64,000 bases of DNA, from assembly GCA_965203905.1 (NCBI GenBank), contig CBDBDQ010000005.1, forward strand, positions 1,312,001 to 1,376,000. The letters are read 5' to 3'. This document shows, one piece after another, positions 30,352 through 46,734 of this stretch; within the stretch, counting starts at the first letter, position 1, and each line of letters begins with the position of its first letter. A program made the translations under genes and the position numbers. Source of the stretch: Spirochaetia bacterium (GTDB lineage: Bacteria; Spirochaetota; Spirochaetia; SZUA-6; Bin103). The notes below the pieces were generated by a model that was given only the letters and a program-made list of their open reading frames with translations, had not been told where the DNA came from and did not search any database.

Positions 30352-30490
30352 CTACCGGAGCCGCGCGCTCGGTCTGGGCATGCGGTAGCCGACCCCGCGC
30401 TCGGTCAGGATATAGGTGGGCTTGGCGGGGACATCACCGAGCTTGCGGCGCAGAGTCTTCACCAGGGTGCGCACCCGCTCCGCATGCCCT
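30352..30490 (-). pseudogene. OmpR-type winged-helix C-terminal fragment
   Basis: VRTLVKTLRRKLGDVPAKPTYILTERGVGYRMPRP, paralogous to the end of the 31160 gene. Confidence 0.75.
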
Positions 30491-31159: not shown

Positions 31160-32372
31160 CTACCGGTCGCCGGGTGCGGGCATGCGGTAGCCTACCCCGC
31201 GCTCGTTGAAGATGTAGGCGGGGCGGGCGGGGGCGTCGCCCAGCTTGCCGCGCAGCTTCTTCACGAACGTACGCACCAATTCCGAATCGCCGGTGGGGAG
31301 CCTGCCCCACACCTGCCGCAGCAGCGAATCGTAGGTCAATACCCGTCCCGCGTTGACCGAGAGCACCCGCAGCAGTTCGTATTCGGTCACCGTCAGCCGT
31401 ATCGGCCGCCCGCCCACGGTCACGCGCCGCTGCTCGTAGTCGATCGCCAGGTCGGCCAGCAGGAACGGTTCCGGCCTGGATCGCTTGCGCAGCGCCGCCC
31501 GCACTCGCGCCGTCAACTCCGTCGGTGAGAACGGCTTGACGATGTAGTCGGCGGCGCCCGCTTCCAACGCCCGGGCGATCGTCTCGTCCCGGCCGTAGGC
31601 GGAGATGAAGATGACCGGAATGTCGGACAGCTCGGGGACCGACTCCAGCAGCTCGATGCCATCGGACCCGGGCAACAGCAGGTCGAGCAGCACCAGCTGC
31701 GGCTTCCTGGTCTCGATGAGGTGCGACAACTCCCGCGGATCGCCCGTCATCGATGGGGCGTAGCCGGCCGTGGTGAGCGCGTCGCGGACGTAGTGCAGGG
31801 TCAGCGGGTCGTCATCCACCACCAGAATGCCAGCGCGCTCACTGCCGTCGCGGGGCGGGCGCGCACGGATCGGGGCGGCGACAGCCTCTTCGACCGCCGG
31901 CAGCGTAAACGTGAACCGCGTCCCCCGGCCCGGCCCCTCGCTCTCGGCCCGGATGCGCCCTCCGTGAGCCTCCACCAGCCCCTTGCAGATAGCCAGCCCC
32001 AGGCCCGCCCCGCGACCCAGCGCGCCCTCGTCGCCGCCCACCGCGACGTGCTTGCGGAACAGGTACGGCAGCCGCTCCGGCGCCACGCCCCTGCCTTCGT
32101 CGGTAACCGAGATCGCCACCTCGGCGCCATCGTGCAACGCCTCGACCCGGATCGGGGCGGACTCCTGAGAGTACCGCGCGGCGTTGGAGAACAGGTTGTT
32201 CAGCACCTGCACGATGCGCCGCTCATCCGCCATCACCCGCGGCAGCTCCGGCGGCAGGTCGATGTGCAGGGTGTGCCGGGCGCCGCCACTCAGGAACGTG
32301 CTGCGCGCCTGGTCCACCAGGGCGGACACCTCCACGGGACCGAGGTCCACCGACAGCGTGCCGGTGTCAATG
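31160..32372 (-). pseudogene. 3' part (HATPase-REC-winged helix) of a hybrid sensor kinase/response regulator interrupted by IS21
   Basis: QVLNNLFSNAARYS, DEGRG, GLGLAICK, ILVVDDD, DLLLPG, ADYIVKPFS, GVGYRM. Confidence 0.9.
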
Positions 32373-32639
32373 TGCGTATTCCGGTGAAAAAAGCCACCCA
32401 TTCCGGAAATAAAAAGCCACCGGGGAGTGGTCCGACCCTGCACCAGCCAGTATAGCGGGGTGGCTTTTTTGAATCAATCTGACAGTGCGCTCAGAGCGCT
32501 CAGAGGGGGTTAAGAGCGGTAACGGCCACTTGGCCGGAGTCCTCCAGGGTGGCCTGTTGCCGGTGCCTGGTACACCGCCCTGGCTGAGGAGACTGCATCG
32601 GCGGTGGTTGGATCTGTGTAAGCGACACCGTGATGCGCT

Positions 32640-33960
32640 GGAGAGTAGCATCTGGCTGGCGGAGCGCCGTGTCGAATGGTTTGTTCGAGGTGCAGGCGTG
32701 GCGAATCGCGCGGGCCAGCGGCGCTGAGAAACGGCGTTGACGGGCATTTTTCGGATGTTCGGGGGTACCCTGGAGTACCGCCGCGGGTTGGGAAGGGCCT
32801 CAGGGGGCCGCTGAGAGGCTGACTCTGACGCCGAGCGGCGCGCTGACGGCGAAACGGCGGTGGCGGCCGGCGGCGGAGGGGTGCGAATGCCGCGATCGCG
32901 GGCGCGACGGTGTTCATGCTGGCGTGCTGCCGCGACCTCGACCGGTGGCCCGGCGGCAGGCAGCGGTAGTCGGCGCGGAACAGCAACCGGCGACCGCACG
33001 CGGTGCCTTCGATTTGTGGGTCCAGGCGGAGCCGGTGCGGGCGGACCGCGCGGGCCAGCGGCGCTGAGAAACGGCGTTGACGGGCATTTTTCGGATGTTC
33101 GGGGGTACCCTGGAGTACCGCCGCGGGTTGGGAAGGGCCTCAGGGGGCCGCTGAGAGGCTGACTCTGACGCCGAGCGGCGCGCTGACGGCGAAACGGCGG
33201 TGGCGGCCGGCGGTAGAGGGGTGCGAATGCCGCGATCGCGGGCGCGACGGTGTTCATGCTGGCGTGCTGCCGCGACCTCGACCGGTGGCCCGGCGGCAGG
33301 CAGCGGTAGTTGGCTCGGAATAGCAACCGACAATCGCTCGCGGGGTGCCCTTCGATTGCGGGTCCAGGCGGACGCCGGTGTGGCGGACCGCGCGGGCCAG
33401 TGGCGCTGAGAAACGGCGTTGACGGGCATTTTTCGGATGTTCGGGGGTACCCTGGAGTACCGCCGCGGGTTGGGAAGGGCCTCAGGGGGCCGCTGAGAGG
33501 CTGACTCTGACGCCGAGCGGCGCGCTGACGGCGAAACGGCGGTGGCGGCCGGCGGTAGAGGGGTGCGAATGCCGCGATCGCGGGCGCGACGGTGTTCATG
33601 CTGGCGTGCTGCCGCGACCTCGACCGGTGGCCCGGCGGCAGGCAGCGGTAGTTGGCTCGGAATAGCAACCGACAATCGCTCGCGGGGTGCCCTTCGATTG
33701 CGGGTCCAGGCGGACGCCGGTGTGGCGGACCGCGCGGGCCAGTGGCGCTGAGAAACGGCGTTGACGGGCATTTTTCGGATGTTCGGGGGTACCCTGGAGT
33801 ACCGCCGCGGGTTGGGAAGGGCCTCAGGGGGCCGCTGAGAAGCCGACCCTGACGCCGAGCGGCGCGCTGACGGCCAAACAGCGCTGCCAGACGGTCGTGG
33901 AGGGGTCCGCATGCCCGAGATCGCCGCCGCGACGGTGCTCGTTGCTGCCGCGACCTCGTG
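32640..33960. repeat. tandem array of ~3.9 units of 340-342 bp inside the IS
   Basis: Invariant 96-bp core at 32721, 33061, 33403 and 33745. Confidence 0.95.
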
Positions 33961-34029
33961 GTGGACCACGGAGCGCCGCGCGCGGCAGCACGGCTCCTGC
34001 CCGGCGCGGTCGTGGCGCCGGCCGGGGCG

Positions 34030-34791
34030 CTATCCCAGCGGCTCGGCTGGATCCCGGTTGGCGCGCTCGGCATACAGCTTGCGCACCGAATCTCCTTCCA
34101 GGTCGATGCGGTGGGCGCCGTGCACGAGGCGATCACAGATCGCGTCGGCGATGGTGGGCTCGCCGATCACCTCATGCCAGGACGACACCGGCAACTGCGA
34201 CACCATCAGCGTCGAGGCTCGACCGTGGCGATCTTCGAGCATCTCCAGCAGTGCCAGCCGCGCCAGTGCGTCCAGCGGCTCCAGCGCAAAGTCATCGATG
34301 ATCGTCAAAGCCTGCTTGCTGATCTTCTCCAGCTCGCGGACGTAACTGCCGTCAGCCTTGGCCAGGCGCAGTTCCGCGAACAGCCGCGAGGACGCATGGT
34401 AGCCGACCCGGAACCCGCGCAGACACGCCTGGTGGCCCAGTGCGGAGGCCAGGAAGCTCTTCCCGGAGCCACATTTGCCGGTGATGATCAGGTCCTGGTG
34501 GTGCTGCACCCAGCGGCAGTCGGCCAGCCGCAGCAACTGGTTCCGGTCCAGGTTGCGGCGCAGTGCGAAGTCGACCTCCTCGATGGCGGCCGGGTAGCGA
34601 AAACGGGCCGCCTTCAGCAGCCGCTTCAGCCGCCGCTCATGGCGGTCGTCCCACTCGGCATCCACCAGGTGAGCCAGCAACTCGTCGGCGGTCCACTGGC
34701 CCTGGGTGTCGAGGCTGGTGCGCAACGCCCGCGCCATGCCGTGCAGGCGCATCTGGTCGAGCTTGTGGAGGGTAGCTTGGTTATTGGTCAT
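34030..34791 (-). CDS. istB: IS21 helper ATPase IstB
   Basis: GKCGSGKSFLA Walker A, IIDDFAL Walker B, ADAICDRLVH. Confidence 0.95.
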   Translation of the reverse strand: MTNNQATLHKLDQMRLHGMARALRTSLDTQGQWTADELLAHLVDAEWDDRHERRLKRLLKAARFRYPAAIEEVDFALRRNLDRNQLLRLADCRWVQHHQDLIITGKCGSGKSFLASALGHQACLRGFRVGYHASSRLFAELRLAKADGSYVRELEKISKQALTIIDDFALEPLDALARLALLEMLEDRHGRASTLMVSQLPVSSWHEVIGEPTIADAICDRLVHGAHRIDLEGDSVRKLYAERANRDPAEPLG

Positions 34792-34804
34792 CGTCGGACC
34801 CCCC

Positions 34805-36361
34805 TCAGTGGTAGTAGCGGCTGCCACGCACGTTGTCATGGCTGGGGAAGCTCAGCGGCTGCTGCTCTTGCTCCTCCTCCAAGCCCAGCTTCAGCATGTT
34901 CTGAATGCGGCGGTAGGAGCACAGACCGTAGGACAGCGCCCGCCGGCAGGCGCGATCGAGCCGCGCTGCGCCGTAGCTCTTCTCCAGGTTCAGGATGCCG
35001 AGGCAGGCACGGAACCCCTGCGGCGGGTACTTGGCGTCCCCTAGCACCTGCTCGATCACCGCCTCGACGTTGGGGCCGAGCGCCCGTCCCCAACGCAGAA
35101 ATCGTTCCGGACTCCACTCGGCGTACCAGCGGTGCTGCGGCGGCATGTGGTCGGGCAGCGTGGTGTAGCCACCCGGACGGCGATCACGCTGGTACTCGGC
35201 GATGCGCACGTTGTCGTAGTAGATCGTGACGGTGCGCTCGTCGTACAGCAGTTTCACCTTGGTGCGCGGATCGCGGGTGCGTAGTTGCCAGGGCACGCTG
35301 TAGTGGTGCCGGTCTTCGCGCAGCTCGACGTGATAGTTGAACCCGACCGTCACTTCGCGGGTCTGCTGCAGCGGGAAGTGGTGCGCAGGCAACGGCGCCA
35401 GGGCCGGCTGCTCGATCTGCTCGAACAGCTCACGGCGTGAGTAGGGCAGCCGCTGAAAGCGGCGCCGGTTGTGCTGCTCGAGCAGCGGCCTGATCGCCGC
35501 GTTGAGCGCCTCGAGCGAGTGGAAGGTACGATCACGCAACGGGGCGTAGATGCGCTGATAGGTCAGCCGCACCGCGTTCTCGACCAGAGCCTTGTCCCGT
35601 GCCTGGCGGACGCGGGCGGGCATGATGACGAGCCCATAGTGCTCGGCGAACGCGTCGAAGGTGGGATTGATGCCCGGCTCATAGGGGTCTGAGCGGCTCA
35701 CGGCGCTGCGCAGGTTGTCCGGGATGATGACCTGCGGGCAGCCGCCGCAGTAGCGCAGCGCGCGCTCGTTGGAGCGGATCCAGTCCTCGCTCTGTTGCGT
35801 GGCGCTGGCCTCCACGTAGGTCAGCTCGCTGGCCCCGAGGATCGCGACGAAGGTTTCCACCGCCTGCTCCTTGCCGCCCTCCGGGTCCACGATCGCCAGC
35901 CGGTCGCCGGCGTAGTCGACGAACAGCTTCTCGCCGGCCTTGTGGTCGATGTGCATGGCCACCTCGGCGCTCTTGCGCCAGCGGTGGAAATGGTGGCAGA
36001 ACTGGCTGTTCTGATAGCCGTCCGGGTGTTCGCGCAGGTACTCCTCCCAGAGCAACTGCAGCGTCACTCCCTTGCGCCGCAGCTCCTTGACCATCATCGG
36101 AAACCGCTCGACCAGCCGCTCATAGCGCGCGTTGGTGCGCGCCGCACGATTGCCCTCCAACACGCTCAGCAACTCGCTGTCGGGCAACTCCTGCGCCTGC
36201 TCCCAGGTCAGTCCGCTGCCGCGGAAGCACTCCAGGTACTTCGCCACCGCGGTGCGCGACACCTGCAGCGCGCGGCCAATCGCTCGCTCACTCAGACCGG
36301 TGGTCACCCCGTAGCGGATGACCTCCTTGATCTTCTCCATGTTGATCCTCCTGCGTGCCAT
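34805..36361 (-). CDS. istA: IS21 DDE transposase IstA
   Basis: N-terminal HTH, GEKLFVDYAG, IPDNLRSAV, ARDKALVENAV, HDNVRG..YY. Confidence 0.95.
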   Translation of the reverse strand: MARRRINMEKIKEVIRYGVTTGLSERAIGRALQVSRTAVAKYLECFRGSGLTWEQAQELPDSELLSVLEGNRAARTNARYERLVERFPMMVKELRRKGVTLQLLWEEYLREHPDGYQNSQFCHHFHRWRKSAEVAMHIDHKAGEKLFVDYAGDRLAIVDPEGGKEQAVETFVAILGASELTYVEASATQQSEDWIRSNERALRYCGGCPQVIIPDNLRSAVSRSDPYEPGINPTFDAFAEHYGLVIMPARVRQARDKALVENAVRLTYQRIYAPLRDRTFHSLEALNAAIRPLLEQHNRRRFQRLPYSRRELFEQIEQPALAPLPAHHFPLQQTREVTVGFNYHVELREDRHHYSVPWQLRTRDPRTKVKLLYDERTVTIYYDNVRIAEYQRDRRPGGYTTLPDHMPPQHRWYAEWSPERFLRWGRALGPNVEAVIEQVLGDAKYPPQGFRACLGILNLEKSYGAARLDRACRRALSYGLCSYRRIQNMLKLGLEEEQEQQPLSFPSHDNVRGSRYYH

Positions 36362-36529
36362 GCATCTCCCTCCGGTACGGATCGGGAGAGCGTAGTGGAG
36401 GATCGGACCAGACCCCGTCCGGGCAGCAGCCTCAAATTGGCTTTTTTCCGCCGGACGGGTGGCTTTTTATTTCCGGACGGCTGGCTCCCTTATAATCGGA
36501 TCAGTGGCTCTTTTGCACCGGATTCTGCA

Positions 36530-37669
36530 AATGCGACCGGCATCGAGCAGATCCCTGATCAGGCCGTCCATGTAATCGGCCTGCTGGTCGATGATGCGGA
36601 AGAACTGCCGCACCTCGGCCGGGTCCACCACGCGCAGGTTGCCCAGCGCAGTGGCCGCCAGCCCCTTGATGGAGCTCAACGGCGCCCGCAACTCGTGACT
36701 CACCATCCCCAGGAACTCCGCCCGCTGGCGCTCCAGCTCCTCCAGCGGTCCCAGGTCCTGAAGGGTCACGACCAACGACTCGACGGTACCGCCTTCGAAC
36801 TTGATCGGCGTCGCGTTCATCAGCGTCGTCACGCTCCTGCCGTCGTCCACCGACAGTACGATTTCCTCGGCGCGCACCGTGGTGGCGCTGCGCAGCGCCG
36901 CCGCCAGGGGGAACTCGTCAGAGTTGATCTCCTGCCCATCGGCGCGCCGGCAGGTCACCACCTGTAGCAGCTCCTCCATTGTCTGCCCCGGATCGAGCAG
37001 GTCCCTGACGATCCGCCGCGCCTCCTGGTTGTGCGAGACCAATTGCGCGGTCCTGGCATCGAACACCACGACGCCCACCGGGGAGGTGTCGATCAGGGCC
37101 TCCAGGTCGGCCCGCACCCGCTGCTCGTCGCGGTGCGTACGGGCGTTGGCGATCGCGGTCGCGGCCTGCGAGGCGAACAGCACCAGCACCTCCTCGTCCT
37201 CGCCCGAATACTCCTGTCCTTCTTCCTTGTCGCCGAGAAAGAAGTTGCCGATCAGCACCCCGCGATGGCGCATCGGCGTTCCCTGGAAGGTCTTTGCGGT
37301 TATGAAGTCCGAACGAAAGCCGAGCGACTGCACGTAGGCGGGCAGGTCCCGCACGCGCAGCGGGGAGGGCAGATCTCGCAAGTGTTTGAACAGCTTCATT
37401 CCGTCCGGCCAGTCCTTCAACCCCCGGCGCTCCTCCGGCGTGAGGCCGCACATGAGAAGGTCATCCAGTTTCCCCGCCTCGTCGACGGTGGTGATCAACG
37501 CATAGCGGGAGCCGGTGAGAGCGCGCGCGTTCTCGGCGATCTCGTGCAGGACGGTGTCGATATCGAGGCTCGCGCTGACGCGCAGCGCCGCCGCGCTCAG
37601 GTTCGAGATACGGTTGCGCAGCGCCTCATTCTCCCGGCCGAGCTCGTCTGCACTCTTCAATGGGCCCAT
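36530..37669 (-). pseudogene. 5' part (GAF-PAS-HisKA) of the interrupted hybrid kinase
   Basis: GAF-like region, DTSPVGVVVFD PAS, EFLGMVSHELRAPL H-box. Confidence 0.9.
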
Positions 37670-45000: not shown

Positions 45001-46734
45001 GACGGCGCTACCGGCAGCACCGGAATGAGCGCTCCCAACGGCGCATGGGACGTGATGGTAAGGGAAGATGGCCTGACCGTGGATACCAGCACCAGTCCGT
45101 GGACCATCTCAGCGCGATCGACCGGGACCATCAACGACCGCGACTTCAACTTCGAGGATTTCACCGGGGAAGACGACACAACGCCACCGCCTCCGCCGCC
45201 GCCGCCGCCGCCTCCTCCGCCGCCGCCTCCTCCGCCGCCGCCGCCTCCTCCGCCTCCTCCTCCTCCTCCGCCGCCTCCGCCGCCTCCTCCGCCTCCGCCT
45301 CCGCCTCCGCCGCCGCCGCCGCCTCCTCCGCCGCCTCCGCCGGAACCGCCGGAACCACCGGAGCCGCCAGAACCGCCGGAGCCGCCAGAACCACCAGAAC
45401 CGCCAGAACCACCAGAACCGCCGGAGCCACCGGAACCGCCGGAACCGCCAGAACCACCGGAACCACCAGAACCGCCAGAGCCGCCAGAACCGCCGGAGCC
45501 GCCAGAACCGCCAGAACCGCCAGAACCACCGGAACCACCAGAGCCGCCAGAACCGCCAGAACCACCAGAGCCGCCGGAACCGCCGGAACCACCAGAACCA
45601 CCGGAGCCGCCAGAACCGCCAGAACCACCAGAACCGCCAGAACCGCCGGAACCGCCGGAACCACCAGAGCCGCCGGAACCGCCAGAACCGCCAGAACCAC
45701 CGGAACCGCCGGAACCACCAGAACCACCAGAACCACCAGAACCACCGGAACCACCAGAACCGCCAGAGCCGCCAGAACCGCCAGAGCCGCCAGAACCGCC
45801 AGAACCGCCAGAACCGCCAGAGCCGGAGGGTCCCTTCATTGAAGAGTTCGCGCCCCGCGCAGCCCTTTATGAGGTCCTGCCAGACTTTCTGCTGCGTCTG
45901 ATGCGGCCCACGCAGATGTGCCCCTCATCCGCGGGCTGGGGCATAGCGGGCCGGATATCGGGCGGTAACGGGTCATACACAGCGCGACGCTCGACGGTGG
46001 GTGCGTCGTACGACTTCGACCGTCTGGATACCAAGGCGGGTGTGAACCTCGGCCTTGGCAGCGAGGTAACTGGAGGGGCTTCGGCGCGCTACCTGAGCAG
46101 TACGGCGAACGTTTCCGCTCCCACGGGGGGAGGAACGATAACCGCCCAGGGGGTCGGCGCCGTGGCCGGCGTTTTCTGGCACAGCGAGAGCAACTTCTAC
46201 GCCGCCGGCTGCGGTTCTCTGGTGTACTTTGGTGTGGACTTCGACTCCAACAAGCGTGGCAGGCTCAAGACCGGCGCCGCGGCCACCGGGCACTCTCTGG
46301 GTGCTGAGTTGGGGTATGGGTTGGGCCTCGGCGCACACCTCGGCGTGACGCCTCATGCGTGGGTCTATTGGCCGAACATCGCCGTGGACGACTTCACGGA
46401 CGCGGTGAACTCACGCGTGTCGGTAAATGCCGCCGATCGCTTGATCGGCGGCATTGGGCTGGCGTTGGAGAGCACGCACCATTCGGGGACTGGAGAGATC
46501 TCGCTGCGTGGTGCGCTGGGCCTGGAGCATATCTTCGGTGGCACCGAGACGATCGCCGTGGTATCGGGAGAGAATCTGGTGTCGGTGGCAGCCGAGAACG
46601 GGATTTGGATTGGTCTTGACAGCGCCTATCGGCAGGAAGACTTCTCCCTCGGCGCGGGTCTAAGGTCGGCGCTGCAGTTTGGCACCGATACCCAGTCATA
46701 CTCCGGCTACCTCAGGTTTGGAGTGCATTTTTAG
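42058..46734 (+). CDS. autotransporter (type Va) adhesin-like protein with beta-helical passenger and proline stalk
   Basis: Signal peptide, repeated I.T.G..S.G(V/I) motifs, Pro tract, ~290-aa C-terminal barrel ending YLRFGVHF. Confidence 0.9.
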   Translation: MDLGRKHRFPDGAHCRAAFLLVVWLVAAAGAARAQQTAVCSNTPASNQRVECKEDSDSTSAIDIDLAGVSIETTTDHKQGVHGEHMGAGNVAIDVAASSGGDRSMVTTSGAGATAIQGAQYGTSGDAAIYLEDTTITTAGTNAMGVFGIIQQPNSQGNVVIDADAVDITTTGVNEFRSYGFGLYGRNQASVGNVNIDARSYTYHGTGYGVFGWRDEGGRGSVTISVEDSDITTTGTSGQGIERRGLDSHGIYARQLSEDATTGDVIDIDVKNTIITTEDMRSHGVSAWSIGPAAIDIDLEDVTIRSESTDTDTHPPHLFDTLSHGVFARNAPYLTSGNTGDIRITDTGGDIITKGTQSYGIGALHESAVDDTDSLTRDNEGGITITTVRTAIDTSGPNSPAIHAEHQGSGDIWIIPQGVDIETTGLDGYGVGGLHEGTGDISLDVGYSILQEDETTTVVYSDITTAGESGSGVYGRHTGAGDITIDVEFADITTTGAKASGIEAFIGHTDLETDDPPSAAGNIDIDGGFFVTIEAVFHGVFVRHSGGAGRVDIDLTSPDITTTGTFGSNGVYVWRQGTDTGPVNVTVNRSDIITEGRSSHGVFVDHQGKDTADICIIVDGSSVGDIETAGYNSYGVRGFRNGGLDSVGTGTVKIDVRDLRITTTGSRGRGIDAYHTGTGDIDIDVEGGSINTSGELAYGIRARHQPIAKDEDDNFILRDGDITIDPTNVTITTSGVAADGIQGYHQSRGDLIIRPQDAIIRTLSRGIYRNTGTLANGIYGIHTGVGDLEIDARGGTIRTRGTYSYGIQGRHSGDGDVGITTDDSHSIITRGANAHGIVAYHFGTMDSRAMAVTVDGTVETRGAGANGVQIGALDSNGVPERVAGLDAEGYLRQSVTVNDSVHGGSGDAAGVFLAGGGRVYIGPAGTVGADSDIAIRASGGSPKLYVDMDLNGRRLAAVIGDDWIINDGGETTIVVNDVKLHDGATGSTGMSAPNGAWDVMVREDGLTVDTSTSPWTISARSTGTINDRDFNFEDFTGEDDTTPPPPPPPPPPPPPPPPPPPPPPPPPPPPPPPPPPPPPPPPPPPPPPPPPPPPPEPPEPPEPPEPPEPPEPPEPPEPPEPPEPPEPPEPPEPPEPPEPPEPPEPPEPPEPPEPPEPPEPPEPPEPPEPPEPPEPPEPPEPPEPPEPPEPPEPPEPPEPPEPPEPPEPPEPPEPPEPPEPPEPPEPPEPPEPPEPPEPPEPPEPPEPPEPPEPPEPEGPFIEEFAPRAALYEVLPDFLLRLMRPTQMCPSSAGWGIAGRISGGNGSYTARRSTVGASYDFDRLDTKAGVNLGLGSEVTGGASARYLSSTANVSAPTGGGTITAQGVGAVAGVFWHSESNFYAAGCGSLVYFGVDFDSNKRGRLKTGAAATGHSLGAELGYGLGLGAHLGVTPHAWVYWPNIAVDDFTDAVNSRVSVNAADRLIGGIGLALESTHHSGTGEISLRGALGLEHIFGGTETIAVVSGENLVSVAAENGIWIGLDSAYRQEDFSLGAGLRSALQFGTDTQSYSGYLRFGVHF
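45184..45819 (+). repeat. coding microsatellite: ~53 Pro followed by ~53 x EPP
   Basis: CCN run 45184-45342, then 9-bp GARCCRCCR units to 45819. Confidence 0.95.

Follow-up and report, generated by a model that had tools for sequence, protein, structure and literature searches.

Tandem copies of a phased DNA module in the non-coding 3' tail of a Spirochaetia IS21 element

In an IS21-family element of a Spirochaetia bacterium, four identical cores stand in tandem in a long non-coding tail downstream of istB, and the question they raise is what keeps them identical and at which level, RNA, protein or DNA, the repeated sequence might act. A first-pass annotation of the window (the whole 64,000-nucleotide stretch of DNA that was analysed) had proposed either a repeated structured non-coding RNA or a DNA-level cis module, built on an invariant core.

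The IS21 element and its array

The element occupies 4,157 bp on the minus strand (32373–36529), limits given by an identical second copy that spans exactly the same stretch (G000:C5:629942-634098, where G000 is the window genome; L numbers below are compared loci), by TG..CA ends and by target duplications, of 4 bp (AATG) around the window copy and 6 bp around the other. Assembled contigs from four public runs have the same element ends with different flanks. istA (34805–36361, minus strand) encodes a DDE transposase of 518 aa (NF033546, 257 bits against a cut-off of 160), and istB, directly downstream (34030–34791, minus strand), an AAA+ ATPase (PF01695, E 4.6e-58). The left end (36360–36529, minus strand) carries AAAAAGCCACC-type terminal repeats, presumably IstA sites. 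In the right end (32373–32480, minus strand) there are three AAAAAGCCACC repeats, together with a sigma70-like promoter that faces outward (TTGATT-17-TATACT, 32477-32449). By every defining feature tested, namely the IstA DDE transposase, the IstB AAA+ ATPase directly downstream, the TG..CA ends, the multiple terminal repeats and the target duplication, the element is an ordinary IS21; IS21 itself and IS5376 share these features, istA and istB included, with target duplications of 4–6 bp.

IS21 members are usually 2–3 kb long. What sets the window element apart from the family is that its 3' tail is non-coding over 1.66 kb and repeats a 342-bp module 3.6 times in tandem: the istB stop and the element end are 1,657 bp apart, and the 1.65 kb and 4157 bp first claimed for tail and element agree with our measurements. 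Within 32373–36529 only istA and istB are protein-like, and no Cas or other guide-binding effector gene was found.

The element interrupts a hybrid histidine kinase/response regulator gene with the domain order GAF-PAS-HisKA-HATPase-receiver-winged-helix. Its 5' part (36530–37669, minus strand) holds GAF, PAS and HisKA, and its 3' part (31160–32372, minus strand) HATPase_c, Response_reg and Trans_reg_C; the promoter-like site at 32477-32449 faces this 3' half. Two 125-bp copies at 30361–30485 and 31163–31287, with 76% identity, are a duplicated response-regulator gene 3' end.

The array scores far above chance in TRF (score 2201, 3.6 copies). Its four cores (32720–32816, 33060–33156, 33402–33498 and, closest to istB, 33744–33840) are spaced 340, 342 and 342 bp apart; they are as real as first claimed, and the longest run identical in all four measures 97 bp. 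Each consists of a short left arm with TTGACGGG, a GGTAC-N6-GTACC centre and the start of a phased arm. The direct repeats that had been described at the core ends, CGCTGAGA, are present, and so are both inverted repeats within, GGTAC-N6-GTACC and CCTCAG..CTGAG. Repeat alignment resolves unit 1 (340 bp, 32721–33060), units 2 and 3 (342 bp each, 33061–33744) and a partial unit 4 (33745–33960), and bears out the earlier description of units 2 and 3 as identical and of the 340-bp unit 1 as diverging from them, which it does at offsets 153–154 and from offset 250 onward. The phased arm, at 33129–33260 in unit 2 and at the corresponding position in every unit, has an A/T period of about 10.4–10.6 bp. 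Part of the unit, at 33146–33304 (minus strand) and at the corresponding position in units 1–3, matches an IS3-family orfB located elsewhere in the genome, over the final codons of that gene and its 3' tail; the match appears both as a profile hit (E 1.9e-17 in L182) and in the alignment. Since the ~130 bp after the core are also 98–100% identical in units 1–3, the core is distinctive only when set against the terminal flanks. In partial unit 4, the arm is 78% identical to the other units and the distal part is orthologous to the last unit of a related element, L001.

The array did not arise from faulty assembly. Pieces of it reach about 2–5 times the depth of istAB in run X6 (26–66 against 13), which fits collapsed copies in another strain, and the bin 33199–33409, with zero depth in all four public runs, is best read as repeat collapse. 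The open-access literature searched describes neither an array of this kind nor gyrase sites in IS tails, and the array, which is real, is apparently undescribed so far.

Core identity and the distribution of the module

Copy number ranges from 0 to 4 across related IS21 elements. The closest named IstB relatives, 93–94% identical, sit in a Spirochaetia MAG (L026, L027), in elements with an IstA about 90% identical and no unit, which end 0.4–0.65 kb past istB; a relative in genome G004 has about 1.5 units, one IS21 of genome G005 has two, and the diverged G000 element L001 has three. The expectation that the core would recur downstream of istB in IstA homologues holds for the lineage relatives, which share the module, and fails wholly or in part for the relatives at ~90% IstA identity, with no unit or about 1.5.

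The core had also been claimed to be invariant in the sense of being more conserved than its flanks. This does not hold between lineages: comparing the window IS21 with L001, identity is 83–86% in the core, 77–82% in the arm, 82–83% in the distal part and 80–84% in the left flank (77–84% over the flanks as a whole), and the core is not above the four-fold sites of istB, which are 86% identical. The cores cluster by element and the terminal flanks by position, the distal part of the last unit being 81% identical across elements and 55–59% identical within them. It is the clustering of the terminal flanks by position that places a two-core architecture before the split of the elements and the homogenisation of the cores after it. 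We thus show, by comparing aligned copies, that arrays of two or more cores are older than the split of the related IS21 copies, and the invariance of the core, as these alignments present it, is concerted evolution within the array and not evidence of strong selection on 97 bp. The array boundaries fall at the core. The variable segments of the units, which had been likened to spacers, turned out to be diverged homologues, 84–87% alike, without other genomic match, and the suggested comparison with insertion targets gave no match to insertion flanks. At the greatest distances the core (~70%) and the arm (~60–65%) are still alignable, and the rest falls to ~50%, the random level.

Units also occur downstream of IS110 genes at five loci, in an IS3-bounded element and beside a distant IS21 (L114, IstB 34% identical), and some have no nearby transposase. 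Diverged sites with a like centre are found in other IS tails (L157, L169, L172/L185, L181, L182, L183, L190), and a looser variant site in another IS21 tail of the window genome. Within this lineage, other IS21 and IS3 elements carry related sites in their tails, and further ones are located next to IS110 genes; related centres recur in tails of several unrelated IstA/IstB lineages. Many homologues sit in broken, nested elements, and IS110, IS3 and DDE remnants abut units. Units are confined to IS tails and are not spread between genes. We conclude that IS families exchange modules, for which their tails form a common pool.

Searching related genomes for the tail gave some match in 21 of 61, with long unit matches only in the same genus, and a class-wide sample gave strong matches in 3/401 genomes, all of the same genus (two candidates scored per genome, low sensitivity). 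The unit had four weak short matches among plasmids and none among phages. Its exact 31-nt degenerate pattern did not occur in the metagenome contigs searched, and a loose pattern matched 17 times in viral contigs, with no match homologous by HMM (best E 0.78). The unit HMM had no match at 80 IstB-relative loci, many of which are short contigs, and two further tail sites had chance matches only among plasmids.

Several tails hold other features as well. A 95-aa ORF, often the third gene after istB, accompanies the module in several tails and is absent from the window IS21; its protein (L108:2292-2579 and relatives) has 372 homologues, an upstream GTTACGTAAC palindrome and no NCBIfam match, and the gene is present in 14 of the 24 family genomes, also in IS3- and IS110-associated tails. 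An IS3-family element (L181:925-2830) has a ~1-kb 3' tail with arm, small ORF and variant site, followed by right-repeat-like sequence. In the tails of L167, L169, L181 and L182, paired TTATCCACA-like motifs, which resemble DnaA boxes, precede a CCCC-rich stretch close to the right ends of several IS.

Helical phase, RNA structure and coding signal

What persists in the module, as the alignments of its homologues show, is a DNA-level pattern, a GGTA..TACC pseudo-palindrome beside an A/T-phased arm. Over the ~130 bp right of the centre, A/T positions recur every 10.4–10.6 bp, with a consensus period of 10.4 bp. Measured against random 130-bp genome windows, 24/29 anchored homologous arms rank within the top 0.5%. 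These 24 include two of the window's four units, of which the other two lie at 1.7–1.9%, and on the same scale the right arm of the phage Mu SGS scores 6.6 and pSC101 par 6.8, the homologous arms being mostly higher. The periodicity of core plus arm in the window is equalled by 2 of 4,000 genome windows and 4 of 2,000 shuffles. For the whole array the peak is at 10.65 bp and the mean periodicity exceeds that of essentially all genome blocks of the same size, a figure inflated by the non-independence of the copies. The distance from TTGACG to the centre falls into two classes one helical turn apart, and, among binned indel events, lengths of 9–12 bp account for 7 of 15 with one reference and 8 of 27 with the other. 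Slippage within a sequence that was periodic to begin with could have produced these ~10-bp indels. IstB relatives do not as a rule have phased tails (9/62 downstream regions against about 6/39 distant flanks). In an unrelated genome (L050), very strong 10–11-bp periodicity (16.5) lies ~2.5–3.2 kb downstream of istB.

Of the two possibilities offered in the first-pass annotation, the DNA-level cis module is probable, and a repeated structured RNA of the bridge, seek or guide kind is very unlikely. It is true that the array is present in assembled contigs of RNA libraries, which cover the whole element (such contigs carry no strand, ends or level), and that units lie downstream of IS110 transposases at the five loci noted above. 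Against an RNA, however, the Rfam scan of the array returned no family (best E 8.6), and neither the unit (z = +0.14 and +1.64 on the two strands) nor the core (z = -1.17 and +0.02) shows an excess of folding over shuffles. The covariation check ended likewise, with an Alifold term of +0.27 on an 18-sequence alignment and a double change in 2/25 pairs, and the two inverted repeats (GGTAC/GTACC and CCTCAG/CTGAG), paired in 73% of cells, are at shuffle level, 227 of 500 shuffles scoring as high. The orientation of the unit relative to the transposase is opposite in the IS21 and IS110 contexts, and the promoter scan found no promoter-like site within units; TTGACG was considered as a promoter and rejected, the only -10-like hexamer lying 14 or 22–24 nt away.

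The array resembles IS110 bridge and seek RNAs and TIGR and CRISPR arrays in being non-coding sequence beside a transposase and in its repeated units; it differs from them in that the units are without structure, covariation, hypervariable guide segments or effector. A link to CAST-like RNA guidance, raised earlier, is not supported, the element having no Cas or other guide-binding effector gene. The bridge RNA of IS110 is expected in the 5' non-coding region. The neighbouring IS110 elements carry a separate, conserved 5' non-coding region of their own, and the G000 copy has no unit directly downstream, and we have rejected the units as IS110 bridge RNA. A ~270-nt conserved non-coding region with short variable stretches lies upstream of IS110 transposases at L106:3040-3330, L108:590-860, L121:140-420, L122:230-520 and L001:9000-9280 and is probably their bridge RNA.

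A protein-coding repeat of 114 codons is suggested by the period of 342 bp, divisible by 3, and by open frames of 351 and 589 aa. It is effectively refuted: the period-3.0 power is 0.3 in the array against 54 in istB, the two long ORFs are without Pfam match above threshold, and frame-breaking indels occur in unit 1 and in homologues. The array is thus non-coding, as the first reading had it. We also give scarcely any credence to a site-specific recombination site (res-, dif- or attC-like) or an internal IstA-binding enhancer. A pseudo-palindrome with a 6-bp centre and GTCAG/CTGAG-type half-sites, and array boundaries that coincide with the core, would suit a recombination site, but the element is without recombinase, the spacer of the centre differs among related sites and the TTGACG distance varies by ~10 bp; as for an enhancer, no terminal-repeat motif in the units is better than 3 mismatches, which is chance level.

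A possible gyrase-type site and its rivals

The reading we prefer, with a confidence that stays somewhat below even, is that the module may be a one-armed gyrase-type DNA-wrapping site, of the kind of Mu SGS and pSC101 par, amplified by unequal recombination. A 10–11-bp phased G+C/A+T arm, a feature of strong gyrase sites, is present in the module, and the host genome encodes gyrA. We scored sites with the published 130-bp E. coli matrix from Topo-Seq (PMC6379681, tables DS4A and DS10), from which host specificity may differ; as a control, Mu SGS and pSC101 par each came out as the best site of its replicon, with an offset of 3 bp and a score 1–2 bits below the published one. With the full matrix, 4 of 26 units lie beyond the 95th percentile, with no shared peak, and 4 of 22 do so at the centre, the window site scoring 5.1 against 17.7–18.2 for Mu and pSC101. 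With the half matrix (centre plus one arm, the split being taken from PMC13284261), 14 of the 22 related sites lie beyond the 95th percentile, against 17% of 218 control sites of the form GGTA-N6-8-TACC, and the window site scores 8.4 (p = 0.004) against 12.3–12.9 for the two known sites. Support for the gyrase reading is therefore partial, the half motif fitting those 14 sites and the full motif being at background, and we do not class the module, at best a putative gyrase site, among the strong ones, as it falls short under the full matrix.

The likeness to pSC101 par lies in one arm with a TACC..AAAA(N)GCCCGTCA pattern, an ungapped resemblance to the units and to other IS-tail sites. Comparing one par arm with the genome without gaps, units 2–4 rank 85, unit 1 ranks 187 and a second IS-tail site 147 of 15.6 million positions, and the core profile ranks par 5th–13th of ~18,300 positions in three of four four-letter settings; this comparison is post hoc and the sites are mutually related, so p-values overstate. 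By way of difference, one par arm alone aligns in register, par has a plasmid-stability context and a matrix score higher than that of the units, and the unit HMM misses it, as it does Mu SGS. Mu SGS is, like the module, cis DNA in a transposable element of the Mu superfamily with one long phased arm beside its centre, and the periodicity of the module is of similar or greater strength. The Mu site is single and central (PMC10052514), whereas the window IS21 has four copies near one end; there is no sequence likeness to the units (no match of the Mu SGS arms, and a rank of 285 or worse of ~73,000 with the core profile), and the gyrase-matrix score of the units is much lower.

REPs attract IS110-family elements, and BIME-2/REP arrays share with the array described here a tandem arrangement of palindrome-bearing non-coding units to which other mobile elements are drawn. 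The E. coli BIME-2/REP arrays are gyrase-cleaved repeats (PMC6379681). They differ in that the units here are about 340 bp long, limited to IS tails and without conserved hairpin.

On this account the array is a tandem amplification of double-stranded, non-coding DNA, a module passed around among the 3' tails of the IS of this lineage. Its copy number presumably changed by unequal crossing-over or gene conversion between cores, and the cores were homogenised within each element after the array had formed. If the gyrase reading is correct, host gyrase would cut near the module centre and wrap the arm, making local supercoiling more negative, which might in turn help IstA synapse the ends of the lengthened element. 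IstA binds the ends in a negatively supercoiled geometry (PMC10122671), gyrase binders selected by SELEX are GC-rich, ~10-bp periodic and often one-sided (10.1101/2025.10.21.683783), and gyrase specificity is species-dependent (PMC12324340). Mu requires just one SGS arm, but in a central position (PMC10052514), and the location near one element end here counts against the gyrase reading, as do a core no better conserved than the four-fold sites of istB and close relatives without the module.

We regard as unlikely the wider proposal, drawn from the same comparisons, that several IS families in the host lineage exchange a cis-acting gyrase-recruiting 3'-tail module, and that this IS21 multiplied it fourfold as a means of tuning its own transposition and the supercoiling around it; the module would then be a small-scale equivalent of Mu SGS, adjustable in dose, in a simple IS. 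If the module does recruit gyrase, the principle of Mu SGS, in which host supercoiling is commandeered in cis, would extend to small IS, and near-identical IS21 elements with 0 to 4 copies would be a natural dose series for supercoiling control of IstA synapsis. Gyrase recruitment would then also explain the persistence and inter-family movement of some long non-coding IS tails.

The main rival is neutral amplification, in which the tail would be pieced together from decayed IS ends, one of them the 3' end of an IS3, duplicated by unequal recombination and without present function, its periodicity either inherited or produced by slippage of a ~10-bp GC/AT motif. We judge this on the unlikely side, though a serious contender, and much of what has been described speaks for it: the copy number of 0–4 among close relatives, a core conservation not above that of flanks or synonymous sites, the IS3 remnant sequence in the unit, the many homologues in broken, nested elements, and a unit whose sequence can be recognised in the genus only, with related sites in the family. 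What it explains less readily is that at the deepest distances only core and arm can be aligned (core ~70%, distal part ~50%, the random level), that several unrelated IstA/IstB lineages have related centres in their tails, and that periodicity is retained in 24 of the 29 copies. Were it correct, the array would be a case of ordinary concerted evolution in an IS tail, in which identical array cores need not mean selection or RNA.

The periodicity of the arm would serve equally a bendable stretch of DNA for another protein (IstB, a host nucleoid protein or the transposases of other elements), as a loading site, decoy or landing pad, an alternative to which we assign a small probability. IstB imposes a bend of about 180 degrees on 60 bp and may prefer DNA that is malleable (PMC11208146), a group II intron sits at the site centre five times in G005, and the abutting IS110, IS3 and DDE remnants would be in keeping with a landing pad. 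For IstB the difficulty is that the module is also found in the IS3-bounded element and beside IS110 genes, where no IstB homologue was detected, and for the intron that homing into a multicopy sequence needs no bending.

The intron (TIGR04416) is inserted at the module centre in both orientations of the pseudo-palindrome (L108:3022-10186, L109:3225-5141). Group II introns usually have the ends GTGCG../..AY; those in G005 have GAGCG.. and ..GCC. Among other repeats, the window holds a long CGC-type repeat followed by 54 copies of CCGCCAGAA (45182–45825), and five near-identical dispersed copies of another sequence lie in the genome at G000:C5:3699079, 4835882, 5229351, 6312010 and 6513333, away from the IS genes queried.
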